Notes: a model not told the origin generated them from the letters alone. DNA of 64,000 nt from Nemertoderma westbladi (GCA_032718475.1 JAUCBJ010008544.1:6248-70247); one strand, 5' to 3'. Positions 22,201 to 52,210 are shown, numbered from the stretch's first letter. Translations and numbers: made by a program.

Positions 22201-22348
22201 GAAGGTGATGAATTATTTCACTATAAGGTAGCATTTGTAGTTTAACTTTAACGTAAAAACTTTTGAAAATCCGACGTATTTTGATTAAGTTACAGTAATG
22301 TAATATGCCTATTCATATTTGTACACATAAAACCCTTAGGTACTCTCG

Positions 22349-22417
22349 TGGCGTAGTGGTCAGATGGTTAAGGCGTTGGTTACATTACGTAGGTTACGAG
22401 TTCGAATCCCAGTCGGG
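22349..22417 (+). other. tRNA-derived segment (Pol III A and B boxes) in U3 of the inner LTR; second copy at about 39604-39672
   Basis: A-box-like TGGTCAGATGGTTAAGGC and B-box GAGTTCGAATCCC with tRNA-like spacing; acceptor and anticodon stems are degenerate. Confidence 0.6.
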
Positions 22418-22464
22418 AAATTTGTATTTTGGGGCCATTTATTTTCGTGTGTTGCTAATTGGTA

Positions 22465-22711
22465 GGCCAATGAGAAGCGTACAGCGTAGCGAATGATGAG
22501 CCAGGCCAATCATAGGGCATAAATTATCTTATTGCTCAAATGTGAGGCAGTGGAAAATTCTGTTAGGATTCCATGTCCCAGATTAGTGTAAGGGCTGGAC
22601 TGCGTTGAACGATGAGCTGGGCCAATCATAGAGCACCGAAGCACTTCATTGCTCAATGGTGAAGCTGTGGAAAATTCTGTTTAGTTTCCATGTGCAATTT
22701 CTAGTATAAAA
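22465..22711 (+). promoter_or_regulatory. Putative LTR promoter: three CCAAT boxes, a ~115-bp tandem duplication and a TATAAAA box
   Basis: GGCCAAT near 22466, 22504 and 22620; TATAAAA at 22705-22711. Confidence 0.55.
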
Positions 22712-25387
22712 GGCCGGTTTGCCTTCGGTTATCACACTCTCTGTTATCATCCTGATATCGTTTATTCTTGTAAAATTAGTTAATTCGGTTTCTTGTTGAA
22801 ACTTTATTTGATAAATCCTTTTGTAAAACTGTAAATATACTGCAATTTCCTGACATGTTTTCTTTTGGTCCGACTTCGGGACAGCCGAACACCAGGGAGA
22901 TGGCAGCCTAGATCGTTAGGCCGTAAGCAACGCAGGGAAGGGATGTCCACAACACGCTAGCGCCCACATTGGATCGACCGCGCACCCCCTTTGCCCCTTC
23001 GAAATGCTCAACTTGCTATGCAGCGCCCGCTTTGTGAGAAGGTAAGACTTTGTTCGACGCCCTTGCCCGCCGTAAGACCTATAGATCAGGGTAAGCGTGA
23101 CACCGTACTGGACGCCGCAAATTTAGGATCAAATAATTATATCCAGACACCCCCCCCCCCCTTTGTCAGTCCTACGAATCCCTGGGTTAACCTGTACTTC
23201 CTACAGGTGCGAACTATTGCCATTCGTCAGTACGCGAGTACATATTAGGTACGGACAGCATACGTTCCATAATTTAGTGATTCATAGCACTGACTGTTTG
23301 GTACCGGTTCGCTTTGTAGAACGTACATTAGTACCCCCCCCCCCCCTGTCTGGAGTTAGCTATTTGATCAGGCAAGGAGCATTTCTGCTACCGGCACACT
23401 GCTTGGCCTAGGGAGGTTTATTAATATCCTACCGCGCCTTGCCACGTACTGATAGGTATTGCTGCTAACTACCGCAGCAACAAAGTTCTAGAATTAAATT
23501 AGTATACCAGATCAGCTAACGTACGGTAGCGATTAACCCCTATTCTTATCTTACAACCAGAATCTGGTATTAGTGCCGATCACGGGTGTAGTTACTAACA
23601 CTGTGGTTGCCCATTGGGTTGTGGATAGGAAGGAGAGAGCTTTGACGTCATTCGTGAGTATAAAGTTCTACAAACGCGACTAGTTTATTTTAGTAGCTAG
23701 CGCACGGTATCATTTAGTCAGAAAATCACTAAAACCTAGTAAAAGGAATTACACGAAATTGTTTTATTTGTAACACACCCACACACACACGCCCTAAAAC
23801 ATATCGCCCTTAAAGTTCTACTAGCTATAGCGTACTATACATTACTTTAGGTGGAAATTATCTGTATTTGTAAAATTAGGATCTGATTTAGTTGCGGCAA
23901 GATAAGGAGTATTTCACTTTCGTTATTAAACTGTTGTTTGTCTGGACAACGGTATTGTTACATTTAGGCCTGACCTTTTAGACTGATTTCGTACAGGGGG
24001 ATCAGTTATTGTTACATTTAGGCACGACCTTTAGGCTGATTTCGACAGGGATGATCAGCATTGTTACACTAGGTCTGTTAACCACCTAGTTCGTATATAA
24101 CCCATATAAATCACACCGCGGCAAGTTACTGTATTTAGGACTGTCAGTGATAGTTAGGATTCGCTGCGCGGGGATTGTTTTCCCGTGAGTTTGGTCTGTT
24201 ACTGTAACTGTACATCTGCCTCACCGGTTAGAGGACAGGTATCCTTCTGTCTAGTACGTAGGCATTAGACCCGCTCACGTACATAGAATAGATACAAGGC
24301 TCTGTTCCTCGCCAGTAGTCGTTTGTGTACTATATCTGTTTGTTTAGATATCCTGGACTGGGATTTGTTGTCAGATACTGTACAAGCCCGTATACATTAC
24401 TAGAGTCTCATAGTAAGATACATCGTTACTAGGATCTGGTAAGCGGTATACTACTGGACCCTTACAGTAGGAAGTATATTATACAAATTCTGAAATTAGT
24501 GTATAGTATAGTTTAGATCTGCTAGCTATTGTAAGTAGGAGATATTTAAAAATTTAAGGTTAGTAAATTTAGTAATTTAGAACGTCCCCTGCTTCAGTAG
24601 GCTTTTAGGGTAGCTAGTACTTTCGTATTTAATATTTGACTAGCTAACAGTTAGTTTGTAGCACTTTGTTTTACGCCGTGTGTGTGCGGTGTTACTTTTC
24701 GGTACTTGAAAAGGTACATAGGGTTTAAAGACCAATTTGTATCGGTACCTAGGAAGATTTTTCGTAAGCGTAGAAGTAAAACTCTCACCTTCGACCTTTT
24801 CAGGACTCAAGGACTCATTTCTGGACCGCTTCGAGGATTAGACCGCTTTTCGCAAAGTTTGGGAGACAATAAATTCGTCCGCGCCGCCGAAAAACGGAAA
24901 GACCCACGTCCGGTTTGTATTTGGGAATTTGTACGACTGGAAGATCAAAGGAACGTAAGTTTTACGACTCGCGTCGTTCAAACTTAAGAAAGCACAGTAG
25001 TACTCAAAATTTGTGGGTTTCACTGTCTATTAGTAGTGTTGTTGGTACTTATTTTCCCGTTAGACGTTGCTGTTTGGCCTATTGTTTATACTTGTTGATC
25101 TACATTTTGTTAACGTATATCGTTATCTCACTTATTCGTACAAATTTAGCCGGTAGGCTAGATTACTACTTATTTTATTATATACCTTGTTAGTTTATTT
25201 GTACCGGTTAGGGTATATATATGATATATATATATATCAAGGTAAGTTTGACATTTGTACATTTCGACATTTTGACATTTCGACATTCTGACTTGTTGAT
25301 TTATTTGTACCGGTTAGGTAAGTTTAACACTTCAACATTCAGACACTTTGACATTTTATTATCCGTACTTGACGTATATAATAAGAC

Positions 25388-28300
25388 ATGAGTGACATAC
25401 CCCATTCGACGAGATACCCACCTACCGACTATGACTCGTGCGACCCGGACAGATCGACAGTAGACGAACCGAGAAGGAGAACCCGAGATTCCACCGATGT
25501 CACACCGCTTGCGTCGCCGGTACCCCGAACGGAAATACCGGAAACCGCAACGCGTGGCGACGGCAGAATCGAAGATTTCCTTACCGTCCCGCAGACTAGA
25601 TCGCGGGAACCGGACATGGTAAGTTCGACTGGAAGCCAGGAGAACGTTATTAGAAGTATAGGAGGACACATGGCCCAGATTACTCGGAACCTCGGAGAAG
25701 GTTTTCGCGTTTTACGCGAGTTAACCGCCCCGATGTCGAGATACGAGTTCTACACCTTACAGGTAAGGATAGAAAGTAGGGTACATGCCTCCGTAGATAA
25801 ACTTAAAGGTTTGCACGAACTTGCAGAGTTGCGTGGCGACAACTTTACTCAGGTAAAGATAGTAGATAAATTGGTAAGTGCGAGAGAAAGCCTTATCCAG
25901 TTTAAGTCGGTGATAAGATTGGCTCAACAGGAGCAGTTTGACCAACTGCTAGGTGAGTCAGTTTCGGACGCGTTGTTACAACCCGAAGAGGAAGAAGAAC
26001 TCTACTGCCTGGACGGAAGGTTGGAAACGCTGACCAATTTTCTTCGTAGATGCGGCGTACCGATCGACGAACCGGAAGTCGAACCACGAGGGACGACGGA
26101 AGTTCTCACTACGGAAGGCTCGCGAGCCTACCAACATCCACCACTGGATAGATCGTTCGTTAGCGTACGGAGCGACGTTGGCAACGTTGGCGACGTTAGT
26201 AGAACAGCGTCTGGAATTACTCGACAACAACAGGAGGTTGCACGCCGACAACAAGTCGCCGAGGAAGAAGCGCGACACCAGATGGCACAGATCGCCATCG
26301 AAGGAGAGAAACAACATAGAGAGGACGAGGCAAGAATTGCACAACTCAAGGCGCAAGCCGAATTCGAAGCTTCGGAAATGCGCAGACTGGAGGAGGACTT
26401 AGCGCGAGAAGCGGCGGCAGCAGCCGACGAGTTAGCACGGAAGAAAGCAGCATCCGATGCTCGTGCCAAGTTGGAGGCGCGACAAATAAACGCACGATTA
26501 GCTATACAGGAAGCGGAATTAGCGGCACAACAACAAGTAGCGGATCGACGCGAAAGGGAGATGCAACTACAGTTCGAATTGAATCGTAGATCGCGTGAGA
26601 CAGCGAACGCGCAAGCGGACCTCGAACTCGACGCGAGAGATAGATCTATAAGATCGCGAACTGGACACGACTTGTCTGCCCTGGATCGTATGGAAGCTCG
26701 ATATCGCGGAATACAGAAGCGGATCGAGGAAGGAAGTGTGGGAGCGATAGATCGAGGAGAGGAGTTCGTCGAGGATTACTGTAAACGTTTTCCCCAAGTT
26801 ATTCCTATGCTCAAACCCACGACTCCGATAAAACCGGTCTTCGTTACGAAACCTAAGGAAATAACGCCTGTGCGTTCGACGCAAGGCAACAGGTTTGTTG
26901 TGACGGAATTACCGCAACCTAGGGCGACTTCATCGCCAATTTTAGCAGGTAACATAACTAGTCCACCTACAGTAAGTCGTAGTCTACTTGTAGGAAGAGA
27001 GGAACCTGCGTTTATGACCATTAAACAGGTGAGTAAACCATTACAAGTTAAACCTGTGACGTGCTGCGCGAACCCAGTCATTTATAAACCTACAGTAGAC
27101 CTTAACCCTGATGTTTTTACTAGACCTCTCACCCAATGTTTAACGAGACCTACGACTTCGTGGAAGGCTTGCGAGCCTGCCGAACAACGGAGAGCCGTAG
27201 ATCTCAGATCACAACGAACTCGACCAAGGATAATACGCCGGACGCGAACCCGCCAACCACCTTATCCGGACGACAGCGATTCATCCAGTGACTTGGAGTC
27301 GACGGAACGGGAAATATTCCGTACTGGAGCGGCAGCGGCAGCGGATTACAAACGGGAGGAACGATCGACGAACCCCTATATTGACAATCCTCCACGAGAA
27401 ACACCCCAACAGAAACCCACGTTGCAACCAGCGGAAACGATCAGCGCCAAACAGTTCACCGAGATGACGGACAGAATAGCTCAACTCGAAGAACGACTCG
27501 AAGCGCAACCGTCGGATCGATCTCGAACCAGCGTGGAGTTGGAACAACCTAGACAACATCGACCACCGAGGAGAGAACAGGAGACTAGACGGACTCCGAC
27601 ACATCGAGAAGATGATCCCGTTAATAATTCCTACCGACGAACAACGCGCGGAAGGGAGCGACTGGACGACGCCGCCGAACAGGGACGCGGACAGTTGGAT
27701 TTAGTTAGCGAGATTGCGAAATTCGCGGCTAGACACGGATTACCGGCACAGCAACCGCCGAAGTTCTCTGGCAACGCGAAACACTGGCGCACACTGGTAG
27801 ACTACGTAGAGTCCCAGATCGCTAAGTGTGCTTTCACCTCGACGGAGAAGTTTAACTACTTGCTCCAAGTTCTGTCTGGTGAGCCGAAACGATTAGCGGA
27901 AACCTTTATTGGTGTTCCCGATGCCTTTGAGTTGGCGTACGACCGTTTGTATTCGATTTACGGCGGTAATGTCGCCATGGCTAAATCCATCATTGAAGAC
28001 CTCTGCAGAGGAGGCAACATTTCGAGACCGATCGACCTTTTACGACTCGCGGACGAAATAAAGAACGCTATAGGGACTTTACGGTCCATTGGACAACTCG
28101 AGTACGCTAACGCACCGACGGTTCTCATTCGAATAATCGGTCGACTTCATCATCGACTACGACGAGAATGGCGACGCATCGAGTACCAACGCGAAGAGGC
28201 CGGAGGGTTATTAAAACTCACCGATGTCTATCAACTTATTTCACGGGAGGCCGTGATCGAGACTCGATCGAACTATACCGATCACCATATCGCGGCGGAA

Positions 28301-31300
28301 GGGATAACTGTTTCTGCGCCGAATCGGACAAAACCATTTCCGACGAACGCGAAAGCCGTTACTTACGCCACCCCTACTGAGACTTCTAAAGTTCTGACGC
28401 CTATCGGCACCACGCAGCCACGACAACAGTTGCCGGCGGACTTTGTGGGATGCTCATACTGCGAGCGGAACGGCAGAAACCATAGCGGACATAAACTACG
28501 TGGATGTCGCGCTTTTAAAGAGTTAGGGATCGAGGAAAGGAGACTCCAAATCCGATCTCTAGATTCCTGTTGGAGATGTATGAAGCCAGGACACGTCCGG
28601 AAGGATTGCCCGAGCGACGATACATGTTCTTTGTGTGGACGTAACCATGACGCGTTGCTTCACACAACCAGTCATACTCCGACCAGACGCTTTCGACGAG
28701 AGCATCCAGATAAAGCGGCTAGATGCGACGCGCTTTATAAGGAGCGTGCGCCGCGCGAGATCCGTACCTTTTATACCGACTGTATGGATCAGTCAGGATC
28801 ATCGGACGAGGACGAGGAGGAAGACGACACTTTCTACGTGCATGCAGGTGAGGAACAGCCATCGATAACGCTCCTCACACAGAACCAATTGAAAGGGTTT
28901 AGCGTGATTCCTATAAAGATTACCGGAACCCGAGGGAGCAAGCGTATATACGCCATCTTAGACTCTGCGTCATCGCATAGCTATGTCGACGAACAAGTAG
29001 CCGACGTAGTTACGGACTTGAGTCAAGGTAAGACTGCTCAGTATACTGTAAGCAGCATGCATGGTAAGAGAGCGATTCCTGTGACGAGAGTAAAACTAAC
29101 CTTAGACACTCTTCTTTCCAAAGCGGAACACAGCAAGGAGGAGCGCTCATTACTTCCGGTAAGAAATTTGACCTTTGCAGCTACGAAGGACTTTAGTAAC
29201 TTGCTCGGCCCTGTGCCAGAGCAATCACCGGAAGATCGTAAGTATTTCCGACACCTTGGAATACCGGAATGTCCTGTCAATTATCGTTCCATTGCGATGT
29301 TAATTGGGACAGACCAGTTTAACTTACATCAGGTATGGGAGACACGCCCATCTGTTATTACAGCAGGCAACCCCTACGCATGTAGAACTCCCATAGGTTG
29401 GTATACTAGAGCACCAATACGTTCACTAGAGGTAAGTGACCAGGAGGACGACGTTTTGAGTACGTGTAGTTTATTGACTAACACGATAGATAATTCTCCT
29501 TCACACTCCTGTGGTCCAATTGTACGGACGGCACTACGACAGACTTGCGTCACTAACGCGGACGCCACCGATACTGACGTAACCGATCTGGACACGACCA
29601 TACGGACCTCTGACTTACAACTACTTGCAGTAGACCAGGTTGTATTGACTACTGAAGACCTGAGGGTTGTTGCTGTGGATGACTCGATGAACGAGGATTT
29701 TGGAAGGCTTGCGAGCCTACCGAAAAATCCGAAGGTCATTGACCCCACCCACCAGGCTTCGACACCGGTCGTTGATCTTGGAAGGCTTGCGAGCCTACCG
29801 ATAGATCAAGAAGTTGTCAAACCGCCGCACGACAATTCGACGCCGACTAGTGACACCGGAAGGCTTGCGAGCCTACCAGACACATTGACACTAGCCACCG
29901 CAGCGGACGAAGACGTGGACGAGGACCATGGCGCAGTGCAAGCAGCGTTTGACCGACTGCTGACTGAACGGACCATACAATGGTTGGAACAGGACTCAGC
30001 AGAACCCGGTAGTTACGAGACCGCTATGTCAGAACAGGAAAAACGGTCATTAAATATTATGAGAGATACCATTCGCCAGACTGCGAATGGCCACTATGAG
30101 GTTGGTATGTTGTGGCGCGATGGACAACCTAAGCTCGTTAACAATTACCCGCTTGCTTTGAGGCGACTCAAATCAATAAGGCAGCGATTGTTGCGAGACG
30201 AGACGGCCCATATGCAATACAACGCACAACTTCAGACGTATCTCCAAAAGGGATACGCCATTAGGATGTTAAATCCTGAGGTAACTACAGACCAGACATA
30301 TTACCTGCCACATCATTTTGTTCGACACCCGGACAAACCTGGCAAGGTGCGTGTAGTCAACGACTGCGCTGCGCTTTACCAAGGGATGTCTATGAACAGC
30401 GAACTGATGGACGGGCCGAATATGAATAATTACCTCATGGGAGTCCTAATGCGTTTTAGACAACGCAAAGTGGCTTTCACCTGTGACGTAGAGGCCATGT
30501 TTCACCAGGTTAAGGCTTTGGAGCGGGACAGGGACAGTTTGAGGTTTCTTTGGTATCCGGACGGAAACTTACAACTTCCGCCAGAAACTTACCAAATGCA
30601 GGTAAGAGTATTCGGAGCCAGGGACAGCCCCAACTGCACCATGTACGCATTGAAGCAGACAGCATTGGACAGACGAGACCAATTTGACCCAGAAGTAGTT
30701 CGGACCGTGGAACGAGATTTCTACGTGGATGACGGCCTCAAGAGTTGTGACACCTTGGAGCGCGCTACAACCGTAGCACACCAACTCCAGGATTGTCTCG
30801 CTGAGGGCGGATTTCACCTGACGAAGTTCGCTTCCAACGAACCCGAACTGGTGAACTCATTTGACCCGACGGATCGTAGCGGAGGTGACTTGGACTTAGA
30901 CCTAGAACCTCTGCCGACGACCAAAGTATTAGGACTTAGTTGGGACCCTAACACCGACAATTTTAGGGTACGTGTAAGGTCCAACGACCAGACTAGACCT
31001 CTCACTAAGAGGACTTGCTTATCGACTATGAGTCGATTGTATGACCCATTGTGTTTCATTAGTCCAGTGATCCTACATGCCAGGATCATACTCCGCAGCA
31101 TTTGGCAAGCCGGACTGGAATGGGACGATCCCATCCCAGAAAAGTTAGCTGAGCGATGGAGGGACTGGGAAGCCCAACTGACGTTCCTACAAGACTATAC
31201 CATACCGAGGGTATACTTTCCTTTACAAACCACCTTTCCTGCCGATTTAGAGCTTCACAGCTTTAGTGACGCTAGCAAGGATGGATTGGGGGTTACTTTA

Positions 31301-34153
31301 TACCTTAGACGACAAGTGACATCGGACAGCTACGATGTGTCTCTCGTTACTTCAAGGGCTAGAACAATGCCATTGAAGTATATGACTGTACCTCGTGGGG
31401 AGCTGCAAGCCGGGACGATATCCACCGATATTGTCAGTCTAGTTCAACGCGAGCTGGAGGCTAACTTGAAGGTCACATATTGGACGGATGCGACGTTGGT
31501 ACTTTGGTACATAAACAACGAAACATTCGAGTTCAAGACTTTCGTAGCCAACAGACGGGCTGAAATACTAGACCGGTCGCTCAATCAAGATTGGCGTCAC
31601 TGTCCAGGGAAGCTGAACCCAGCTGACATCGCGTCACGGGGAATGCAACCACTTGACTTTTGTAAACCGGACAATAAATCCTTTTGGTTTAGAGGACCCG
31701 ATTTCCTACAGCGACCATCAGACGAATGGCCACCGTTATTCGACGCGACAACCAACACCATACCAGAGGGTGCCGAGATAAAACTCGACAAGGTTGTCAA
31801 GTCTAAAGCGAAAGCCAACGCCAAGGTCAAAAGGAAAAAAGGACGGACGAAATCTGATGACCTGGACGCCAGACCTGACATTACGCCAGACGTCTCGCCA
31901 GACACTCGACCAGACGCTTGTACGAATCCTTCGCCGGATGTTCCGCGGGAGATTTCACCAGACGTTTCGCCGGATTGTTCACCAGATTACTCGCCAGACT
32001 ATTCACCAGAAGAGACACCAGATTGTTCTCCGGATTGTTCGCCAGATTGTTTGATGGAACTCTCGACAGAATGTCTACCGGACGTCTCACCAGACTGTTC
32101 ACCAGACATCTCGACAGACTGTCCACCAGACTGTCTACCAGACTTTGAACCAGACTTTCTGACAGAAGTTACGCTAGACAGACTTTGGGACCGACGACAG
32201 GACATTTCGCCGGATGTTCCGCGCTATGTCTCACCAGACGTCTCACCAGACTGTTCACCAGACGCTTCACCAGACTGTCTACTAGACACTCCATTAGAAG
32301 ACCCATTGGAGCGGACATTTAGAGACGTACCAAATTCGACTTCTTTGGACGACAGAGATGTGGCCACAGGGATTACACTCCGCTCGAAGAAGGTACTTGA
32401 CTTACCTACAGGTAAACGTGTGACTAAGGTTAGGAAGCTTACAGGCTCACAGGAACACACTGACGCTGTAGAGTTGAAACCATTACTGCCAGTCGACACA
32501 TTAGGTGCGGACGGTAAAGGTAAGACCGTAGAGATTGACGTACTTGGGGACTCAGACAAACCTACCGGAAGGCCCGTGGGCCTACCAAGTCCAGACAAGT
32601 ATCCACACTACGACTACACCTTACCCGATGACGTCACTAACACTTACGTTGACAGGATAGTGAACCTAACTAGATCATGGACTGACGCGTGCCGCAAGTT
32701 AGCATGGCTCAAACGATTGAGACAATATGCCAGAGGCAAACGCGACTTTCCTAGAAGACTTACCTTAAAGGAAATTGGCCACTGTGAAGTTGATATCATT
32801 CGACATTATCAATTGCGATATTTCGCACGAGAGTTCACAGCGATCAAACAAGGTAAACAGATTAAGTCTTCACCGATTTTGAGTTGGAGTCCGATTATTT
32901 ACCGGGGCTTACTTTGTCACAAGTCCAGACTCCAAAACATCGACTTTGCACTTGACTTTAGGTATCCTATCATCATACCGCAACACCATGAGTTACAGCG
33001 CGCTATGATACTGGACGCACATGTACAACTCAAACACGTAGGTAGACACCACTGTCTATCACACTTACGCTCGAGGTTTGTACTGATTAGACCTAGTAAG
33101 GCACTGAGTTCAGTAACACGGAACTGTATTATTTGTAAGAAGGTGCACGCGAGGATAGGACACCAAGAAATGAGTGAACTACCACTAGCAAGATTACAGG
33201 CGTTTAGACCCCCTTTCACTGAGACAGGGATAGACTGTTTTGGACCCATAATCGCGAAACGCGGAAGGGTACAGGTAAAACGTTGGGGATTGATCTTCAC
33301 TTGCATGGCCAGCAGAGCTGTCCATATAGAGCGAGTGACAGACTTGTCCACCAATGCCTTTATCCTAGCCTTACGGCGATTTATCGCTAGACGTGGATTG
33401 GTCAAATCCATATACTGCGACCAAGGGACAAACTTTGTGGGTGCACGGAACGAGATAACCAGAGCTTTGAGAAAATTGGACCAAAACCAGATTTCCGAGG
33501 AACTACGTCCTCACCGTATTGTTTGGTTTTTCAATACTCCAGACAGTCCGTGGAGAGGCGGCGTTTGGGAAAGGCTGATTGGCTCAATAAAGACAGCTAT
33601 GGCTAAAGTCGTACCGACGCAACACATCTTGACAGACGACCAACTGACGACGTTACTAATAGAAATCGAAGCAATCTTAAATACCAGACCGATCGCTTTG
33701 ATCCCAGACAATAACGACGTACAGTTTGCCTTGACACCAGCGCACCTGCTTATGCAGGCGCCGACGACACTGTTGCCCATTTCGGTACCCGTTGATAGTG
33801 ACGGATACGGCAACAAGGCTTGGAAAATCACTCAATTGCTTGCAAATAAATTCTGGGAAATATGGCAGAAATATTATTTGCCCTCTATTTCGACCAGAAC
33901 CTCTTGGTATCTAAATACCCGATGTTTAAGACGTGGTGACCATGTTTTATTGGCTGAAGCTAATCTGAAAAGACGGTTTTGGCTGACTGGAGTCATTTTG
34001 ACCACGCACCCTACATCTGGTGTAGTGAGGACAGTTACTGTACGGACTATCGACGGTCGTACCGTAGACAGACCTGTACAACGTCTCGTACTCCTTGAGG
34101 AGACTAGAAACGAGACGGGAGACTACAAATCTCCACCCAATATTAGTAAATAG
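25388..34153 (+). CDS. BEL/Pao Gag-Pol polyprotein (Gag with 3 Cys/His boxes, protease, RT, RNase H, integrase)
   Basis: PKFSG..W gag motif; CSYC..H..C, CWRC..GH..C, CSLC..H..LLH; ILDSAS; YYLPHH, DVEAMFHQV, FYVDD; FSDAS; NPADIASRG; GIDCFGP, CDQGTNF, GGVWERLI. Uninterrupted 2921 aa. Confidence 0.97.
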   Translation: MSDIPHSTRYPPTDYDSCDPDRSTVDEPRRRTRDSTDVTPLASPVPRTEIPETATRGDGRIEDFLTVPQTRSREPDMVSSTGSQENVIRSIGGHMAQITRNLGEGFRVLRELTAPMSRYEFYTLQVRIESRVHASVDKLKGLHELAELRGDNFTQVKIVDKLVSARESLIQFKSVIRLAQQEQFDQLLGESVSDALLQPEEEEELYCLDGRLETLTNFLRRCGVPIDEPEVEPRGTTEVLTTEGSRAYQHPPLDRSFVSVRSDVGNVGDVSRTASGITRQQQEVARRQQVAEEEARHQMAQIAIEGEKQHREDEARIAQLKAQAEFEASEMRRLEEDLAREAAAAADELARKKAASDARAKLEARQINARLAIQEAELAAQQQVADRREREMQLQFELNRRSRETANAQADLELDARDRSIRSRTGHDLSALDRMEARYRGIQKRIEEGSVGAIDRGEEFVEDYCKRFPQVIPMLKPTTPIKPVFVTKPKEITPVRSTQGNRFVVTELPQPRATSSPILAGNITSPPTVSRSLLVGREEPAFMTIKQVSKPLQVKPVTCCANPVIYKPTVDLNPDVFTRPLTQCLTRPTTSWKACEPAEQRRAVDLRSQRTRPRIIRRTRTRQPPYPDDSDSSSDLESTEREIFRTGAAAAADYKREERSTNPYIDNPPRETPQQKPTLQPAETISAKQFTEMTDRIAQLEERLEAQPSDRSRTSVELEQPRQHRPPRREQETRRTPTHREDDPVNNSYRRTTRGRERLDDAAEQGRGQLDLVSEIAKFAARHGLPAQQPPKFSGNAKHWRTLVDYVESQIAKCAFTSTEKFNYLLQVLSGEPKRLAETFIGVPDAFELAYDRLYSIYGGNVAMAKSIIEDLCRGGNISRPIDLLRLADEIKNAIGTLRSIGQLEYANAPTVLIRIIGRLHHRLRREWRRIEYQREEAGGLLKLTDVYQLISREAVIETRSNYTDHHIAAEGITVSAPNRTKPFPTNAKAVTYATPTETSKVLTPIGTTQPRQQLPADFVGCSYCERNGRNHSGHKLRGCRAFKELGIEERRLQIRSLDSCWRCMKPGHVRKDCPSDDTCSLCGRNHDALLHTTSHTPTRRFRREHPDKAARCDALYKERAPREIRTFYTDCMDQSGSSDEDEEEDDTFYVHAGEEQPSITLLTQNQLKGFSVIPIKITGTRGSKRIYAILDSASSHSYVDEQVADVVTDLSQGKTAQYTVSSMHGKRAIPVTRVKLTLDTLLSKAEHSKEERSLLPVRNLTFAATKDFSNLLGPVPEQSPEDRKYFRHLGIPECPVNYRSIAMLIGTDQFNLHQVWETRPSVITAGNPYACRTPIGWYTRAPIRSLEVSDQEDDVLSTCSLLTNTIDNSPSHSCGPIVRTALRQTCVTNADATDTDVTDLDTTIRTSDLQLLAVDQVVLTTEDLRVVAVDDSMNEDFGRLASLPKNPKVIDPTHQASTPVVDLGRLASLPIDQEVVKPPHDNSTPTSDTGRLASLPDTLTLATAADEDVDEDHGAVQAAFDRLLTERTIQWLEQDSAEPGSYETAMSEQEKRSLNIMRDTIRQTANGHYEVGMLWRDGQPKLVNNYPLALRRLKSIRQRLLRDETAHMQYNAQLQTYLQKGYAIRMLNPEVTTDQTYYLPHHFVRHPDKPGKVRVVNDCAALYQGMSMNSELMDGPNMNNYLMGVLMRFRQRKVAFTCDVEAMFHQVKALERDRDSLRFLWYPDGNLQLPPETYQMQVRVFGARDSPNCTMYALKQTALDRRDQFDPEVVRTVERDFYVDDGLKSCDTLERATTVAHQLQDCLAEGGFHLTKFASNEPELVNSFDPTDRSGGDLDLDLEPLPTTKVLGLSWDPNTDNFRVRVRSNDQTRPLTKRTCLSTMSRLYDPLCFISPVILHARIILRSIWQAGLEWDDPIPEKLAERWRDWEAQLTFLQDYTIPRVYFPLQTTFPADLELHSFSDASKDGLGVTLYLRRQVTSDSYDVSLVTSRARTMPLKYMTVPRGELQAGTISTDIVSLVQRELEANLKVTYWTDATLVLWYINNETFEFKTFVANRRAEILDRSLNQDWRHCPGKLNPADIASRGMQPLDFCKPDNKSFWFRGPDFLQRPSDEWPPLFDATTNTIPEGAEIKLDKVVKSKAKANAKVKRKKGRTKSDDLDARPDITPDVSPDTRPDACTNPSPDVPREISPDVSPDCSPDYSPDYSPEETPDCSPDCSPDCLMELSTECLPDVSPDCSPDISTDCPPDCLPDFEPDFLTEVTLDRLWDRRQDISPDVPRYVSPDVSPDCSPDASPDCLLDTPLEDPLERTFRDVPNSTSLDDRDVATGITLRSKKVLDLPTGKRVTKVRKLTGSQEHTDAVELKPLLPVDTLGADGKGKTVEIDVLGDSDKPTGRPVGLPSPDKYPHYDYTLPDDVTNTYVDRIVNLTRSWTDACRKLAWLKRLRQYARGKRDFPRRLTLKEIGHCEVDIIRHYQLRYFAREFTAIKQGKQIKSSPILSWSPIIYRGLLCHKSRLQNIDFALDFRYPIIIPQHHELQRAMILDAHVQLKHVGRHHCLSHLRSRFVLIRPSKALSSVTRNCIICKKVHARIGHQEMSELPLARLQAFRPPFTETGIDCFGPIIAKRGRVQVKRWGLIFTCMASRAVHIERVTDLSTNAFILALRRFIARRGLVKSIYCDQGTNFVGARNEITRALRKLDQNQISEELRPHRIVWFFNTPDSPWRGGVWERLIGSIKTAMAKVVPTQHILTDDQLTTLLIEIEAILNTRPIALIPDNNDVQFALTPAHLLMQAPTTLLPISVPVDSDGYGNKAWKITQLLANKFWEIWQKYYLPSISTRTSWYLNTRCLRRGDHVLLAEANLKRRFWLTGVILTTHPTSGVVRTVTVRTIDGRTVDRPVQRLVLLEETRNETGDYKSPPNISK
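31860..32290 (+). repeat. 12-bp-unit coding repeat (SPDC/SPDV) inside pol, between RNase H and integrase
   Basis: TCACCAGACTGT-like units. Confidence 0.85.
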
Positions 34154-34889
34154 ATGTGGGACCTTTGTTGGCCGCCACATAGACCTACTGTATTTTAGTT
34201 ATTTGTATTTGTATTACTGTACGTGCATTTGTAATCCTCTTCACTGTAGATAGAGACAGCGGTGGAATTCCATTGTCTTTATACGTGAACATGGAGGGTA
34301 GTACCCTTATGTATCACATAGGAGCGGGATTGTGTGTACAGTAGGAATGGAATTCCACTTGGAACCCACAAGTGAGACAATTTTCAAAAATTATTAGACA
34401 AATCCATTTAGTTGGATTTAAATTTAAGAAAAACGATTCTCCAGTGAAAGCAAATTCTAGAATACAGCTAGATAAAATTAAAATTGGGGAGGACAAGAGC
34501 GGATGGAAGGCTTGCGAGCCTACCGATAAATTTTTTTTGGAAAAAGAAAATCGGTCTTGTTCTACGTAGTCGTGTCTACTATTATTTAGACCGAATTAAT
34601 TCTCGACTGCACTATTTTTCTTGGGAAATGTAGCTTGGGAAATTAAAAGGTGAGTATTTTAGACTCGCGGCTAGTTTACCCGGAATTCGTTTTTTATCGG
34701 CACAATTTTTTGGATTAGGGGCCAGTGCGAAATCACGCGAACCCGAAGTCATTAGGCAAAATGGGTTGGGGTTTAGAGCAGAGTTGAGCCAAAAGCCAAC
34801 AAACTCTGGAGTCACCTCACATCTAACCTCTATTTTGTGCTTCATCTAGTAGAAACGTAACGATATGTAACCGCATATATTCGTATACA

Positions 34890-37649
34890 ATGGTGGAGAA
34901 GATGTATAAAGAGTTACGTCAAGGGTTTACGCAAGAACAGGAGCACCAGGCACCATTCAATCGTTATGGAGCTAAAAACTTTAGTGTGTTTGGAGTGGAG
35001 AGTATGGCTAGGAGTACGGCCAAGCTCGCTAAATCCAAGGCGGACCCGAATGTTACGCGACAGCGGTTGGACGCATACAACAAAAGAACGGAGGAATTAC
35101 GCGCGGAATACAATGCGTTATATCCCTACGATGCGTTATGCGACGCTAGCGACATTTGCGAGGATCCAGACACCGAAATACGCCGATTGTATCATACGCT
35201 GCAATATTTGACGGTAAACGAACCTTTACCTGCAGCTAGAGACGAATTTGAAGGAATGCATCTTTATAGACGCGCTCGAGGAGCGGATCCAGAGACCAAG
35301 GACGCGTTTTCCGTATACAAACTGTTTTATAAATGTGGAGCGTGTATGCGCGAGCAAGACAACGCGATTCCTATGCGGTTGAACTCGGAGAACCCCGAGC
35401 CGATATTAGCGCGATGTTCACACCACCAAAGTCTACGTTACCAAGAAGGCGGATACCCTTTGACAAATCCGTATCATTCATTTAAGATGAGTGGACCGAA
35501 CGCGGGTGAGATCGTTATTTACGAACCTAAATTAGTCGAACCAGACGTCTACAGCATGGTAGTGGACGAGTCTAACAAGTCGACACAAGAGAAACGGGAA
35601 GCTTTGAGCCTCTACAGGGCGTACAAGGCGTACGAGAAAGGCGAGATCGAGGAGTTCGGCGGAAGGCTCAAAGGATACTTTAGAGAGTATAACACGCTAA
35701 AAACTGGGACGGGTTATATCTCATATCTGATGTTCAGTTGGGATTACAAGGAGAGTAAGAGGAACAAATACACGGACGTATACGGAGAGGGAGATACCCC
35801 CGGCGTAAACGAGTTCGAGTCACAGTTGAAGTGGCGAGGTTGCGTGTATTGGGCGATTACTTCACCTCCGCGGATAATCTTGCAATACTATTTAGCGATA
35901 GAATCTTCGGTTAACGTTTGTTTCATCGCGGACGTAGTATCCAGAACCTTAAAGCGACACCCGTTATGTCTTGGCGAAGGACATACCTTTTACGATGGAG
36001 GAAGGACGCATACTGATGTATTCCGACGATTTCTCCAACCCTTTTATAACACCGATGCGCACTGCGAAGTTTTCACGCGAGCGGGACTTAGCGTTTTCAG
36101 GGACGTCTATCTCACTCACGCGGGAAGTCTAGTCGACAGACCGTCGATGTTAACGTTAGTACCCTATGACGGGGAACGCCACGCGGAATTCGAACGCCCG
36201 GAAGGATCCTGGAAGGCTCGCGAGCCTACCGCCCATCATGACGATGTGGATCCGACCGAGTTGGCGCTAATAGACGAACCGTTACGGCAACTCATAGAAA
36301 TAGAAGAGAACCTTCCAAGGAAGACGCGAACTGAGATACGCGAGTTAGAGAAAAGCGATGCCATGGTTTGTGTACAACCTACGGAGACGAACATACCGAC
36401 TGACCCGGATGATGAGAATTATCACGTGGACGGTAGCGCTCGCCCCATCGGAGACCTCATCTATGAGCGAGTTTGGTATCCTGCCAACACTATTTGTGGC
36501 AGATGTGGAGCAACTGGCCATCACGCAAAGAAGTGCGGAGCGAAGCACATATCTCTACCGGATTTAGTATGCAACTGGTGCGGGGATCAACGTTCGCACA
36601 CTTTCTACACTTGCTGGCGTTTCGTGGCGCAGTGTACTTATTGTAATATTAAGGGCCATAGGGCATCTGAATGTCAACTTAGAGACGTCCCCTATGAGCA
36701 CATGTCAGTTAAAATCGTTCGACAATTATTCGACCATTGGGAGGATCTAGCAGACGAGCATGTATCGACGCAGCGACGCCGCTTCCCTATGAGAGCACAT
36801 TTGGGATTTTGGGCCGTAAACCCTCTCATAATGTCAAAGGAAGGATATGTATCGGCTATGCCTCAGTACGATGAATTGTTGGAGGTATTGGATATATTGC
36901 CGTTGGACAGTGGATTCAAAGTTGTGCGGGACTATTTCTTACAAGTGCACCCGGACAACAAGAATACTTGGAACTTTCAAACTGTGGTGAACAAGATTAC
37001 CGCCGGAGAATTCGATAAACTGCGAGTTGAACAGCGGAATCGAGGAGCCTGGCATTCGATAGCTTGGGCATACCGGAGCGCATTTTATCACAAACGCGTA
37101 ACCTCGTGCATTCTGGACGAGACCGACGTTTTGCGTGAGACTGGCTTCAAGGCCACGCCGTTAGCGGAGAAGACGCGTCACCCACAGGATGATCAGCAAT
37201 TTCGTATACTCAAAGCCCAGAAGGCCGGACAAGAGATTAAGAAGATAGTGAATGTCGCCGAGAGGACGACATCGAAGTCGCAAATCCGGATGACTCGGGG
37301 CACGGTTTCCCTTGCTAGAGAACCACGCGGAGGGACAGGATACGCTTTGACTGAACCCATTAGGATTCAAACGACGTCAGAGAGCGAGGTGTCAACGGAC
37401 GGAACAGTCCTACCCTTTCGACTTCCTCCTAGCGTTGTAGAAACTCGATCCGATGTTAAGTCGACAGTTGGAATCGGACGAGGATTTAGAGGATTGAGCG
37501 CACGACGGATGTGCGAAACTCCCGTCGTCCCCTTTCCTAGCGTTTTGGAACCACCGACGACTCGACGCCGAAGTCCGAGCCCAGTTCGACCTCGACCACC
37601 CCCCAATCGCACTAGAGGACGTGGACGAGCCCGCTCAGCGAAGGAATAG
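34890..37649 (+). CDS. Additional 919-aa ORF of the inner element; unknown protein with three CCHC-type zinc knuckles and a basic R/P/S-rich tail
   Basis: CGRCGATGHHAKKC, CNWCGDQRSHTFYTC, CTYCNIKGHRASEC; no evident signal peptide or transmembrane segment. Confidence 0.85.
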   Translation: MVEKMYKELRQGFTQEQEHQAPFNRYGAKNFSVFGVESMARSTAKLAKSKADPNVTRQRLDAYNKRTEELRAEYNALYPYDALCDASDICEDPDTEIRRLYHTLQYLTVNEPLPAARDEFEGMHLYRRARGADPETKDAFSVYKLFYKCGACMREQDNAIPMRLNSENPEPILARCSHHQSLRYQEGGYPLTNPYHSFKMSGPNAGEIVIYEPKLVEPDVYSMVVDESNKSTQEKREALSLYRAYKAYEKGEIEEFGGRLKGYFREYNTLKTGTGYISYLMFSWDYKESKRNKYTDVYGEGDTPGVNEFESQLKWRGCVYWAITSPPRIILQYYLAIESSVNVCFIADVVSRTLKRHPLCLGEGHTFYDGGRTHTDVFRRFLQPFYNTDAHCEVFTRAGLSVFRDVYLTHAGSLVDRPSMLTLVPYDGERHAEFERPEGSWKAREPTAHHDDVDPTELALIDEPLRQLIEIEENLPRKTRTEIRELEKSDAMVCVQPTETNIPTDPDDENYHVDGSARPIGDLIYERVWYPANTICGRCGATGHHAKKCGAKHISLPDLVCNWCGDQRSHTFYTCWRFVAQCTYCNIKGHRASECQLRDVPYEHMSVKIVRQLFDHWEDLADEHVSTQRRRFPMRAHLGFWAVNPLIMSKEGYVSAMPQYDELLEVLDILPLDSGFKVVRDYFLQVHPDNKNTWNFQTVVNKITAGEFDKLRVEQRNRGAWHSIAWAYRSAFYHKRVTSCILDETDVLRETGFKATPLAEKTRHPQDDQQFRILKAQKAGQEIKKIVNVAERTTSKSQIRMTRGTVSLAREPRGGTGYALTEPIRIQTTSESEVSTDGTVLPFRLPPSVVETRSDVKSTVGIGRGFRGLSARRMCETPVVPFPSVLEPPTTRRRSPSPVRPRPPPNRTRGRGRARSAKE

Positions 37650-37683
37650 GAAGCGAGTGGAAGGAAGGCTTGCGAGCCTACCG

Positions 37684-37756
37684 ATTTGGATATTATATTT
37701 GGATATTATATTTGGATATTATATTTGGATATTTTATTTGGATATTTATATTGGAC
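37684..37756. repeat. 13-bp tandem repeat (ATTTGGATATTAT) x5
   Basis: Seen directly. Confidence 0.85.
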
Positions 37757-39460
37757 ATACCTAAAGAGGTGAGGTCTCTATAGGGGTGTGTCCAACAGGC
37801 GGCGGCGGACTCGTGAGGGTCTGGGGGCACGTTAAATCAATATATAGTGCTAGGGAGTCACTGAAGGCCCTCGTGTCTAGCGAACCATGAATCGACATGG
37901 TGCCGTGGTTCCGTCTAGTCGGCCTGTTGCCGTACTGCCAGTCCTGTACACAGTAGGGGTGGTGGCATGGCGTGATTTGTGGTTCATGTGGCGTGAACTA
38001 TGTTTTGTATGTGGGCGATCAGTGGCAGTTTGCTTGGGGCTTGGATGGGTTCCTTTGGCCATCAGCTGTTCCGTTTTTTTGATACTATATGTTATTGTCT
38101 CCATGTTCAGCTGATTGGTCTTTGGGATTTGTTCGGGTCTTTGAGCTTTCTGTTGCTGTGGGTACGTGAGTACATGTGATTGTATGTGTGGCCACTGCGA
38201 GTGAGTATGGGAACCCTTGCCAGTTGGTCCAGATGCCGCTGGTATTAGTAGGACCATATCTCTACTGCGCCTCAGCATACTTTGTGCACACAAAGTTATT
38301 TTGCCCTGTCGGCAAAATAAGGTACTCTCGATTAGCCTGTTAGTCGATACAATTTGTCCCCTCTGATTTGACCCCGATTTTGTCTTTACCGATTTTGTCT
38401 CTGTGTGTGCATGGTATGTGTTCGATTTGTGCTTACCGTTGTGTACTTGATTTCGTGAACATCTGTTGAGTACACGTGTACAGTGACTGGTAAGTGGTTA
38501 CTTGTTCAGTAGCTTTTGAGCTACAGACAGTATTGTCTTTTCAATACTGCCGGCGAGGCAGGTGAAAACGTGTCAAAATTCCATGTTGGGTAGCGCAAGC
38601 CCATGTGGGACAAGACCGTCGGTTAGGCCCAAGGGCGACCTTGGTGCTCGATCGCTATCGACTGGTCCACCTGCCGGTTGACTCTTTGTTATACTTTGAG
38701 TTGGCTCAATGTACAGTCAGGCCACAGTAAGTTGACAGTAGCCGCCCATCTGGCTACACGTTCGACGAGCTGTGCCGGTGTGATCGGGGGACCGAAAACA
38801 GAACCCGGGAAGCATCGGACCACCCTCCGGCCCAGTCTGATAATAACAAGCAGTCAGACTGGCCCCAGGGGTGGTGGAAAGGTGTCCGCCTTGTGGGTGC
38901 GCCTCCGGGAGGAGCCCAGAAGGACACAAGCGTATGTTTGAATGTTGGGTTTGGAGGAGCGAGATATGGAAGGAAGGCTTGCGAGCCTACCGTTAGCAAT
39001 TAGTGCTCAGGAGAAGATATCCAGACCAGCAGGACGAACTTTTTAGATCGTCAGGAGGACTCATTTGAAAGTTATTAGCGCATTATGTTTATATTATATT
39101 TGGACAGATTTAATTTGGTGAAGGTTTATTATGTATATTTACAATATATAAAGATTTATCGAAAGAGTTTGATTTATTTGTTCGATTTGTTTTGATTTAT
39201 TTGTTCTGATTTGTTTAATTTGTTTACCTTGATAACCGAAAGCCTTTTTTTGTATTTTAGGCACTAAAGTTAATTCGTAAATTTGTATTTGTATGTACGA
39301 TCGATTGTATTTACGCCGTATCTGCAATATTAAGTATGCAATAATTAGATAGTGATTATATTTTATATTTTAGGCCCTACCAGTAAATTTAGAAATAGTT
39401 TGTAGATATTTTATATTTTGATTGGTGAAAACAGTCTTACTTACTGTTTTCATGGAGCGG

Positions 39461-41723
39461 TGATGAATTATTTCACTATAAGGTAGCATTTGTAGTTTAA
39501 CTTTAACGTAAAAACTTTTGAAAATCCGACGTATTTTGATTAAGTTACAGTAATGTAATATGCCTATTCATATTTGTACACATAAAACCCTTAGGTACTC
39601 TCGTGGCGTAGTGGTCAGATGGTTAAGGCGTTGGTTACATTACGTAGGTTACGAGTTCGAATCCCAGTCGGGAAATTTGTATTTTGGGGCCATTTATTTT
39701 CGTGTGGTGCTAATTGGTAGGCCAATGAGAAGCGTACAGCGTAGCGAATGATGAGCCAGGCCAATCATAGGGCATAAATTATCTTATTGCTCAAATGTGA
39801 GGCAGTGGAAAATTCTGTTAGGATTCCATGTCCCAGATTAGTGTAAGGGCCGGACTGCGTTGAACGATGAGCTGGGCCAATCATAGAGCACGAAGCACTT
39901 CATTGCTCAATGGTGAAGCTGTGGAAAATTCTGTTTAGTTTCCATGTGCAATTTCTAGTATAAAAGGCCGGTTTGCCTTCGGTTATCACCTTCTCTGTTA
40001 ATCATCCTGATTATCGTTTATTCTTGTAAAATTAGTTAATTCGGTTTCTTGTTGAAACTTTATTTGATAAATCCTTTTGTAAAACTGTAAATATACTGCA
40101 ATTTCCTGACATGTTTTCTTTTGGTCCGACTTCGGGACAGCCGAACACCAGGGAGATGGCAGCCTAGATCGTTAGGCCGTAAGCAACGCAGGGAAGGGAT
40201 GTCCACAACACGCTAGCGCCCACATTGGATCGACCGCGCACCCCCTTTGCCCCTTCGAAATGCTCAACTTGCTATGCAGCGCCCGCTTTGTGAGAAGGTA
40301 AGACTTTGTTCGACGCCCTTGCCCGCCGTAAGACCTATAGATCAGGGTAAGCGTGACACCGTACTGGACGCCGCAAATTTAGGATCAAATAATTATATCC
40401 AGACACCCCCCCCCCTTTGTCAAGTCCTACGAATCCCTGGGTTAACCTGTACTTCCTACAGGTGCGAACTATTGCCATTCGTCAGTACGCGAGTACATAT
40501 TAGGTACGGACAGCATACGTTCCATAATTTAGTGATTCATAGCACTGACTGTTTGGTACCGGTTCGCTTTGTAGAACGTACATTAGTACCCCCCCCCCCC
40601 CCTGTCTGGAGTTAGCTATTTGATCAGGCAAGGAGCATTTCTGCTACCGGCACACTGCTTGGCCTAGGGAGGTTTATTAATATCCTACCGCGCCTTGCCA
40701 CGTACTGATAGGTATTGCTGCTAACTACCGCAGCAACAAAGTTCTAGAATTAAATTAGTATACCAGATCAGCTAACGTACGGTAGCGATTAACCCCTATT
40801 CTTATCTTACAACCAGAATCTGGTATTAGTGCCGATCACGGGTGTAGTTACTAACACTGTGGTTGCCCATTGGGTTGTGGATAGGAAGGAGAGAGCTTTG
40901 ACGTCATTCGTGAGTATAAAGTTCTACAAACGCGACTAGTTTATTTTAGTAGCTAGCGCACGGTATCATTTTAGTCAGAAAATCACTAAAACCTAGTAAA
41001 AGGAATTACACGAAATTGTTTTATTTGTAACACACCCACACACACACGCCCTAAAACATATCGCCCTTAAAGTTCTACTAGCTATAGCGTACTATACATT
41101 ACTTTAGGTGGAAATTATCTGTATTTGTAAAATTAGGATCTGATTTAGTTGCGGCAAGATAAGGAGTATTTCACTTTCGTTATTAAACTGTTGTTTGTCT
41201 GGACAACGGTATTGTTACATTTAGGCCTGACCTTTTAGACTGATTTCGTACAGGGGGATCAGTTATTGTTACATTTAGGCACGACCTTTAGGCTGATTTC
41301 GACAGGGATGATCAGCATTGTTACACTAGGTCTGTTAACCACCTAGTTCGTATATAACCCATATAAATCACACCGCGGCAAGTTACTGTATTTAGGACTG
41401 TCAGTGATAGTTAGGATTCGCTGCGCGGGGATTGTTTTCCCGTGAGTTTGGTCTGTTACTGTAACTGTACATCTGCCTCACCGGTTAGAGGACAGGTATC
41501 CTTCTGTCTAGTACGTAGGCATTAGACCCGCTCACGTACATAGAATAGATACAAGGCTCTGTTCCTCGCCAGTAGTCGTTTGTGTACTATATCTGTTTGT
41601 TTAGATATCCTGGACTGGGATTTGTTGTCAGATACTGTACAAGCCCGTATACATTACTAGAGTCTCATAGTAAGATACATCGTTACTAGGATCTGGTAAG
41701 CGGTATACTACTGGACCCTTACA
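39461..41723 (+). repeat. 3' LTR of the inner element (2263 bp)
   Basis: Preceded by a short purine-rich GGAGCGG and the hairpin TGAAAACAGT / ACTGTTTTCA (39426-39452). Confidence 0.97.
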
Positions 41724-41728
41724 GAAGG

Positions 41729-50789: not shown

Positions 50790-51112
50790 TTAATTCTTAA
50801 ATAAAGGAGGACATTCCCCTTTAGAAACATCTAAATCCGCCACTGTAGGTGATTGTAATTAATATACAGAATATGTATGTACATATGTACCTATATACAC
50901 TACCTACCTACATATATATATTTATACAATATACCATGGAAATTTGAATTTCCCTCTCACTAACACGAAGTTCGTATTATATATTTTTTTATGTTTCATG
51001 TCCCCTTAGGGACTCCATTTACTGTATTTCTGCAAAGCTTACCGGTATTTCTAATTTAGTCGTCTAATTTAATTTAGTTTAAATTTCATGCGTAACTTTG
51101 TAATAATTTCCC

Positions 51113-52210
51113 ATGGCGATAGCCCAAAGTATGATAACAAACATTGAGGAAAACATGAACCACTCAACCGAGCAGCCATCACTAGTCGCTATGATGCCAT
51201 TGAGACGCTGTGGTTCTCACGCGATTCGTTTTCGGTTGAACATGTCACCTGAGGTGACATCACCATACCCGTTACACGTAATCGACTATTTGCGAATTGT
51301 CCCTAGTGATTGTGATTTGGGAGATGTGGAACATTGGAAACAAATGATTAGAGATGTGGTTGGTCTTCAAAACACTTTGATGGTGCCCTGGAAAGGCATA
51401 AATTTTCAAGAAGAGGCCGTTGTCAATGAACTGATAGATTATCCAAAAAGATCCGTTCACACGGTTGTTGCCCATCTTCTCAAAGCTTACGGTAAAGCCA
51501 ATTCCGCCAGTATTGTTATTGATAAATCACTTGATTGTGTCCACTATGCTAGCGAGTACATGGATGCTTTTCCTTCCCTGAAATTTATTCATATTGTTCG
51601 CGATCCAAGAGCTCAAGTTAATAGCATGAATGAAGCCATAATCCATGAGTTTTCCACTCTTAGCAATGCTCTCATCTGGTTGGATGCATACGAGAAGGCG
51701 GAACATTTGGTTGCCAAGTATCCAAGTCGGTGTGTGTCCATTCGTTTTGAAGATTTCATCAACGACCAAGAAAATGTACTCAAAAAAATTTGTAATTTTC
51801 TCAACATCCAATTTTCGCCGGAGATGCTTGATATTTCAAGGTCCACAGAAGCAAATGAATTGTCTAAGAAATCGGCTCTTTGGAAGTACAACGCACTTGG
51901 CCCGGTTGCGGCCAACATTGACAAGTTTCGCAAGAAGTTGTGTGACGATGATATTCAAATTATTGAGTCTCTTTGCGGTCATCTAATGAAAAAGTACGGC
52001 TACCACAAAATATTTCCAGAAATGTGCATTGATGTCACGGATAAAATGAAAGCAGACGCGAGGAAGCGAAGTGACGATGGTCGCACAGAGGCATGGAAAG
52101 CCCTGGAATGTGATCCGGAGTTTCCCGATGACTACAAATTAAGAAATAATCGGAATGAATTCTTAGCATGTTGCAAACGCCGTTTTGAACAAAAAAAAAT
52201 CTTGACTTAG
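51113..52210 (+). CDS. PAPS-dependent sulfotransferase family protein, single coding exon
   Basis: 5'-PSB-like PLRRCGSH, IDKS, 3'-PB-like FIHIVRDPRAQVNS, IRFEDFI..ICNFL, IIESLCGHLMKKYGY; AATAAA at about 52338. Confidence 0.8.
   Translation: MAIAQSMITNIEENMNHSTEQPSLVAMMPLRRCGSHAIRFRLNMSPEVTSPYPLHVIDYLRIVPSDCDLGDVEHWKQMIRDVVGLQNTLMVPWKGINFQEEAVVNELIDYPKRSVHTVVAHLLKAYGKANSASIVIDKSLDCVHYASEYMDAFPSLKFIHIVRDPRAQVNSMNEAIIHEFSTLSNALIWLDAYEKAEHLVAKYPSRCVSIRFEDFINDQENVLKKICNFLNIQFSPEMLDISRSTEANELSKKSALWKYNALGPVAANIDKFRKKLCDDDIQIIESLCGHLMKKYGYHKIFPEMCIDVTDKMKADARKRSDDGRTEAWKALECDPEFPDDYKLRNNRNEFLACCKRRFEQKKILT

Follow-up and report, generated by a model that had tools for sequence, protein, structure and literature searches.

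A self-complementary 20-nucleotide motif distributed along a long BEL/Pao retrotransposon of Nemertoderma westbladi

In a 64,000-nucleotide stretch of Nemertoderma westbladi DNA (GCA_032718475.1 JAUCBJ010008544.1:6248-70247; hereafter the window, with positions counted from its first letter), we found a 20-nt near-palindrome repeated along the body of a retrotransposon with long terminal repeats (LTRs), an intact and young BEL/Pao element of 19.5 kb, which is unusually long for an animal element. The ten copies, which amount to eight independent sites in gag-pol, in a second open reading frame (ORF2) and in non-coding sequence, are all on the sense strand and, within the window, occur in this element only. 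The motif array is real and its architecture surprising; mechanistically it admits several readings. The reading that we favour, with a probability of roughly 0.4, is that the motif is a distributed packaging and dimerisation signal on the predicted element RNA.

An earlier note on this DNA had reported ten dispersed copies, and every coordinate that it gave was exact. The count therefore stands but the independence of the copies does not, since three of them, 78 nt apart, are one tandem expansion, which leaves eight sites. The copies are as follows:

26113..26132, plus strand: copy 1, loop CGCG, in the gag N-terminal extension, read as EGSRAY
27162..27181, plus strand: copy 2, loop TGCG and an A:G mismatch, in the gag N-terminal extension, read as WKACEP
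29702..29721, plus strand: copy 3, in the first 78-nt unit, protease-reverse transcriptase linker, read as GRLASLP; stem extends
29780..29799, plus strand: copy 4, in the second 78-nt unit; stem extends; C>T at the final base, seen in 0.8-3.5% of depth
29858..29877, plus strand: copy 5, in the third 78-nt unit
32567..32586, plus strand: copy 6, T8-A13 changed to C8-G13, loop CGTG, in the RNase H-integrase linker, read as GRPVGLP
34505..34524, plus strand: copy 7, between pol and ORF2
36211..36230, plus strand: copy 8, loop CGCG, in the ORF2 acidic linker ahead of the knuckles, read as WKAREP
37663..37682, plus strand: copy 9, 13 nt past the ORF2 stop
38972..38991, plus strand: copy 10, in the 3′ non-coding region

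The common form, GGAAGGCTTGCGAGCCTACC, is found in six copies (29702, 29780, 29858, 34505, 37663 and 38972), and the variants carry C at position 9 (26113 and 36211), G at position 18 (27162), or C8, C9, T11 and G13 (32567). A scan of the window allowing up to three mismatches gave 11 matches (nine loci, two of them also matching on the minus strand through the near-symmetry) against 0.00 in 100 shuffles, and copy 32567, with four mismatches to the common form, was picked up by a covariance model. This model, built from the ten copies, returned exactly those ten in the window at 37-48 bits, the best unrelated match reaching 12 bits; it placed no copy in either LTR or in the leader, and none falls within the first 3 kb of predicted transcript. 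No Rfam covariance model matched the region 22000-42000 at E up to 1. The use of all three reading frames as well as non-coding sequence, with the peptides first proposed, was also as described: the codon positions are 3, 2, 1, 1, 1 and 1 for the gag-pol copies and 2 for the ORF2 copy, and three copies are non-coding. At 35661-35669, in ORF2, there is also a half-site, GGAAGGCTC, where six contigs of sequencing run X1 diverge with letters that complete the motif; these contigs could be recombinant or come from a subfamily with one more copy. Just past the element, at 41724-41740, the target duplication and the following host bases form GAAGGCGTGCCTCC, a short look-alike of the two arms of the motif that occurs at this single site and is probably due to chance.

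That selection acts on the motif at the nucleic-acid level, as had been suggested, is supported by tandem-unit identity, read variants and placement in unaligned segments, and we regard the motif as conserved below the protein level. In the three 78-nt tandem units, the motif is identical at 20 of 20 positions in each of the three pairwise comparisons, whereas the remaining bases are alike at 29, 18 and 23 of 58, and all six full motif codons are common to the units although codon usage permits many others. Read variants with a frequency of at least 3% fall on 1 of 60 motif positions compared with 13 of 116 flank positions (p = 0.02), eight of the 13 flank variants altering an amino acid, a modest test in which the outer tandem copies lie near the ends of the aligned stretch and some contigs fit two places. 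The placement of the coding gag-pol copies in inter-domain linkers held as well, all six being in segments to which almost none of 120 homologues align (coverage 0-0.08); such poorly aligned segments make up 42% of gag-pol, giving p ~0.03 for four independent sites.

When the tandem three are counted as one site, the gaps along the internal region are 1646, 1049, 2618, 2787, 1938, 1706, 1452, 1309 and 488 nt. This spacing is more even than random placement (coefficient of variation 0.41, p = 0.007; p = 0.005 from first to last site), with p = 0.0006 when the sites are restricted to permissive sequence, and such regularity suggests a role that requires sites at intervals of a few kilobases through the element body.

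Each copy is predicted to fold into a 2+5-bp hairpin, GG-A-AGGCY/RGCCT-R-CC, with a four-base YGYG loop and a purine-purine mismatch (about -7.6 kcal/mol). With 40-nt flanks, the predicted inner-stem probability is above 0.9 in eight of the ten copies and about 0.55 in two; with 100-nt flanks, copy 5 loses the predicted inner stem, copies 4 and 6 fall to about 0.5 and the other seven stay above 0.9. In most copies the antisense strand is predicted to fold equally well. The mismatch closing the stem, given earlier as A:A, is A:G at 27162 and A:A in the other copies. As for the two compensatory changes of the earlier note, the T-A to C-G exchange at 32567 was confirmed, whereas its 'T:G to C-G' exchange sits in the four-base loop, at positions that form a base pair only in a duplex of two copies. 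Copies 3 and 4, whose stems extend, differ from each other by two paired changes.

Self-complementarity of the 20-mer continues across the loop, 90 of 90 cells pairing with positions 9-12 and 10-11 included, and two copies are predicted to form an 18-bp duplex. The computed sense homodimers reach -31 to -35 kcal/mol, a gain of 13-20 kcal/mol over two hairpins, and the antisense homodimers gain only about 8 kcal/mol for the variants that need G.U pairs. All eight copies that depart from Watson-Crick symmetry (by two distinct changes) do so through G.U on the sense strand, the antisense strand having C.A/A.C, and the sole polymorphism within the motif, C20>T opposite G, is again G.U-compatible on the sense strand; these three independent sense-strand G.U events, each of about even odds under CpG decay, are a hint. 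The symmetric double change at 32567 would suit base pairing better than a dimeric DNA-binding protein, because both half-sites of such a protein would be damaged. An RNA hairpin is the favoured, predicted form of the motif. In its favour are the one double change, the G.U-tolerant variants and a sense fold predicted in most contexts.

The element that carries the motif has these main parts:

22201..22205, plus strand: target-site duplication GAAGG, 5 bp, found again at 41724-41728
22206..24466, plus strand: 5′ LTR, TG...CA, 2261 bp, with CCAAT boxes at 22467, 22506 and 22622 and a TATA at 22705; no motif copy
25388..34153, plus strand: gag-pol, intact, with DUF1759, zinc knuckle, protease, reverse transcriptase, Peptidase_A17/RNase H, integrase and DUF5641
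34890..37649, plus strand: ORF2, 919 aa, an orphan with a basic low-complexity tail and no transmembrane segment
36495..36674, plus strand: the ORF2 zinc knuckles, three of CCHC type (zf-CCHC, E = 0.0034, short of the curated threshold)
39461..41723, plus strand: 3′ LTR, 2263 bp, with 2253 matches, four mismatches and eight small gaps to the 5′ LTR

The TG...CA LTRs, the 5-bp target-site duplication and the single gag-pol with this set of domains are those of a BEL/Pao element. The insertion lies within a second BEL/Pao element, which is on the minus strand. The gag-pol is open over 2922 codons (2921 aa counted from the first Met) and is about 900 aa longer than its homologues; among the best 120 of 949 hits, the closest full-length relatives are at most 46% identical over reverse transcriptase-RNase H, and short matches reach 55%. 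The linker between RNase H and integrase also holds, at 31880-32300, a 12-nt tandem repeat encoding SPD-type tetrapeptides (SPDC, SPDV, SPDY). For ORF2, we found no homologue among 7982 scored candidates nor, at E up to 0.001, in a set of 1.84 billion representatives; its single match in the PDB (E = 2.3) was judged to be chance, and two single-sequence structure predictions were of low confidence (pLDDT, a per-residue confidence score, 34.7 and 34.5). An env membrane glycoprotein was considered for ORF2 and rejected, with a highest 19-residue hydropathy of 1.48 and no Pfam or PDB match; the extra reading frames of BEL/Pao elements are envelope-like in the reported cases (PMC13524379). The start and end of the transcript, of about 18.5 kb, are predicted from TATA and poly(A) signals, and predicted splice signals lie before ORF2, with a donor near 34650 and acceptors near 34250 and 34850.

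Sequencing runs of four studies contain the element, one of them possibly the source of the window itself, and contigs from two other studies span motif copies with few or no differences (none in an X4 contig over 35864-36279; five, three and none in X5 contigs over 29279-29820, 32511-32982 and 29680-29900). An assembly artefact as the origin of the copies was ruled out, as they are present in independent sequencing runs. In run X1, 2,136 of the 20,595 records aligned to the element are less than 90% alike, and thus the element family is large and diverse. Some contigs lack the 1.17-kb segment between copies 9 and 10 (37758-38933) and retain both copies, while others, in runs X2 and X4, skip most of ORF2 (35452-37519); they may represent shorter subfamilies or non-autonomous derivatives.

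Among relatives, the covariance model gave no match in the 170,374 bases of 21 BEL/Pao loci of 33-42% identity from bacterial genome bins, many of these loci being partial, and neither these loci nor the element holding the insertion has a comparable internal repeat of its own. Apparent dispersed repeats in the 21 loci turned out to be LTR pairs, flanking satellites or chance. The hexapeptides encoded by the motif are absent from the 174 homologous proteins listed, no relative was found in viral contigs, and pattern scans returned isolated matches, four single ones in viral contigs (all of one context) and two single ones in metagenome contigs. From these sequence comparisons, the motif looks specific to this element lineage. 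Loci L007-L027, animal BEL/Pao retrotransposons that in several cases have both LTRs, lie inside bacterial genome bins, which is host contamination.

In the packaging and dimerisation reading, each copy would fold as a hairpin on the element RNA and two copies would convert to the 18-bp duplex. A zinc knuckle of Gag (or ORF2) would recognise the exposed loop guanines and the invariant mismatch; Gag, nucleating at eight points on the RNA, would condense it and chaperone the hairpins of two genomes into duplexes. The copies themselves may have spread through template switching and tandem duplication, surviving only where the protein tolerates them. Protein recognition is proposed because the unpaired purines and loop guanines are invariant, and RNA-RNA pairing because the 20-mer is self-complementary; since retroviruses couple a hairpin-duplex switch with knuckle binding, and RNA viruses have dispersed stem-loops, we chose this reading over the others. 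It is also supported by the copies in three frames and in non-coding sequence, by their even spacing and by their absence from the LTRs.

In the accounts cited, the pseudopalindromes of retroviral dimerisation initiation sites (DIS) switch from hairpin to extended duplex with the aid of nucleocapsid (PMC7599994), and Ty1 and Ty3 RNAs dimerise via short palindromes at the 5′ end (PMC6844567; PMC11381356). Like the DIS of HIV-1 (human immunodeficiency virus type 1), DIS-1/DIS-2 of Moloney murine leukaemia virus (MoMuLV), PAL1/PAL2 of Ty1 and PAL6 of Ty3, the motif is self-complementary and belongs to a retroelement RNA, with both a hairpin and an extended duplex predicted by computation. However, those systems are described with between one and three sequences, all different and all at the 5′ end, whereas here a single sequence occupies eight evenly spaced internal sites and none in the LTR or leader. 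The nucleocapsid knuckle of Rous sarcoma virus (RSV) is reported to bind the guanines of a UGCG tetraloop (PMC5035970), and a UGCG loop is found in seven of the ten motif copies of an element that encodes CCHC knuckles; nevertheless, SL-C of the RSV muPsi is described as a single copy within a leader three-way junction, isolated stem-loops bind weakly, and no homology is implied. RNA viruses are reported to assemble capsids through many dispersed stem-loop packaging signals (PMC6281560). As in the MS2 genome and the hepatitis B virus (HBV) pregenome, where many stem-loops with a common recognition motif extend over coding and non-coding RNA, many predicted stem-loops of one motif lie along the element, but the viral signals are described as degenerate and of graded affinity, in contrast to the near-identical 20-mers seen here in sequence. 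In the incomplete literature collection searched, we found no description of a retrotransposon tiled at even intervals with a near-invariant hairpin.

Several points weigh against packaging and dimerisation. The spacing test was picked after the data had been inspected, and the middle tandem copy alone (1 of 20 positions against 13 of 116, p = 0.35) loses the significance of the read-variant comparison. The sole compensatory double change, T-A to C-G, is matched by 61 of 500 shuffles and is not significant alone, and a general extension of the stem across copies was rejected (p = 0.69). The C/T changes are at CpG-type sites, only three such events bearing on strand, and strand uniformity is weak evidence because reverse transcriptase template switching always preserves orientation. 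A loop of four bases offers little for a kissing contact, near-identical sites would be unable to align two genomes in register, and three to four copies are predicted to be kept in a spliced ORF2 message, so that genomic RNA would not be exclusively marked. Finally, known retroelement signals are described at the 5′ end (PMC6844567, PMC11381356), and the UGCG loop of RSV is reported to be dispensable for Gag specificity and packaging (PMC5035970).

A role as an RNA escort coat ranks close behind as a less probable alternative. Here ORF2 or a host RNA-binding protein would sit on the hairpins during transcription, their even spacing serving to protect, export or localise a very long unspliced RNA in a Rev/RRE-like or zipcode-like manner. 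This role shares the RNA-level evidence, and it agrees with an orphan ORF2 that has three knuckles and a basic tail, with the even spacing, with copies in both the predicted genomic and ORF2 messages, and with the lack of both motif and ORF2 homologue in the distant elements examined. The three to four copies staying in the predicted ORF2 message fit an escort better than a genome-only tag. On the other hand, it leaves the self-complementarity of the loop unexplained, the co-occurrence of ORF2 and motif comes from one family, and the contigs without most of ORF2 (35452-37519, X2 and X4) would fit only with ORF2 acting in trans. A strict version of the Rev/RRE-like pair that the earlier note gave as an example would fit poorly. 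The RRE, HIV-1's response element for Rev, is one large element that is removed from the Rev message; the likeness is a possible accessory RNA-binding protein with a structured site overlapping coding RNA, but the ORF2 message would retain three to four motif copies. The splice signals are predicted only; however splicing proceeds, copies 8-10 are located in ORF2 or after it.

Binding of the motif as a 20-bp palindrome in double-stranded DNA, by a dimeric protein, ORF2 or one of the host, through which the element body would stay unsilenced as VANC does for VANDAL, is unlikely. The two-fold symmetry with a central CpG, the even cover of the body and the orphan accessory gene would agree with it, but the symmetric double change at 32567 would alter each of the half-sites instead of compensating, and the asymmetries are all of G.U type on one strand. 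CCHC knuckles, moreover, usually bind single strands. In the account cited, VANDAL of Arabidopsis also has an accessory gene and a motif multiplied in its own element, partly by tandem repeats (PMC5735166), much as the motif units here are expanded in tandem. However, VANDAL is described as a DNA transposon with 8-9-bp non-palindromic motifs confined to non-coding DNA, whereas seven of the ten copies here are coding, none is in the LTRs, and ORF2 is without a detectable homologue. Sireviruses are likewise LTR retrotransposons with an extra gene and a symmetric, CpG-containing, multi-copy motif (the RM boxes, with multiple polypurine tracts), but their RM boxes are reported to cluster in LTRs and upstream of env, unlike the present motif, which avoids the LTRs and lies inside reading frames (PMC2829016).

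We consider it improbable that the array is a neutral by-product, in which a hairpin acting as a pause or template-switch hot spot for reverse transcriptase would copy and homogenise itself. The single orientation, the partial repeats lying just upstream of copies (GGAA within 15 nt in four of ten copies against an 8% background) and the divergence of the six X1 contigs near the half-site could be explained in this way, but not so readily the sharp 20-nt boundaries in eight unrelated contexts with both frames intact, the even spacing, or the fewer variants inside the motif than outside. More improbable still is that the motif helps a very long genome to be reverse-transcribed, with copies acting in internal plus-strand priming or as programmed points of strand transfer. 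Although the spacing is even on an 18-kb template and a hairpin is also predicted in single-stranded DNA (about -4.5 kcal/mol), a pyrimidine precedes six of the ten copies and the predicted DNA hairpin is about equal on both strands. The purine tract that precedes the 3′ LTR was rejected as an origin of the motif, which is no copy of it.

The 5′ LTR is followed by GTAGGAAGTA and not by the TGG of the tRNA primer site expected in a BEL/Pao element, which several control elements also lack. From the LTR boundary, the first 10 bases after the LTR are exactly complementary to the LTR interior (24467-24478 with 23193-23204, 12 bp with one G.U). Such complementarity occurs for 19 of 14,984 internal 10-mers, and for 1 of 150 by a second test; the control loci gave p = 0.03 (L015), 0.07 (L009), 0.11 (L018), 0.30 (L008) and 0.58 (L024). 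The complementary LTR stretch ends just ahead of a splice-acceptor-like AG. By analogy with Tf1, which uses self-priming, the element may possibly prime itself; no paper on self-priming in BEL/Pao was found in the literature searched. In the U3, a tRNA-like stretch with A- and B-box-like motifs lies upstream of the CCAAT/TATA promoter (22340-22420, with a counterpart in the 3′ LTR), for which ARAGORN makes no tRNA call. Before the 3′ LTR, an AT-rich stretch at 39110-39200 received an ARAGORN tRNA-Cys call that is likely false. Beyond the element, 48847-50538 holds long nested inverted repeats of 49-nt units that are foldback/MITE-like (miniature inverted-repeat transposable elements), and 59503-61005 and 51107-52210 hold uninterrupted RWD-RING-IBR (RNF14-like) and sulfotransferase reading frames, which are host genes.

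Speculatively, these features could belong to a tiling system, in which the orphan zinc-knuckle ORF2 protein would bind a self-complementary RNA tag every 1-2.8 kb and coat and pair the ~18-kb genome, which would thereby evade host surveillance and be packaged, enabling about twice the usual length; the element might also self-prime reverse transcription on its own RNA instead of a tRNA.

How LTR retrotransposons select and pack their own RNA is described as poorly known (PMC6844567). Known packaging signals are single sites near the 5′ end, and a near-invariant tag tiled through coding and non-coding RNA would be a different design. The motif supplies a ready ligand, a 20-nt RNA with two candidate zinc-knuckle domains, that can be tested in vitro. 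If the reading is true, it would give a first function to the orphan accessory gene ORF2 and a reason why the element can carry ~18 kb of RNA.

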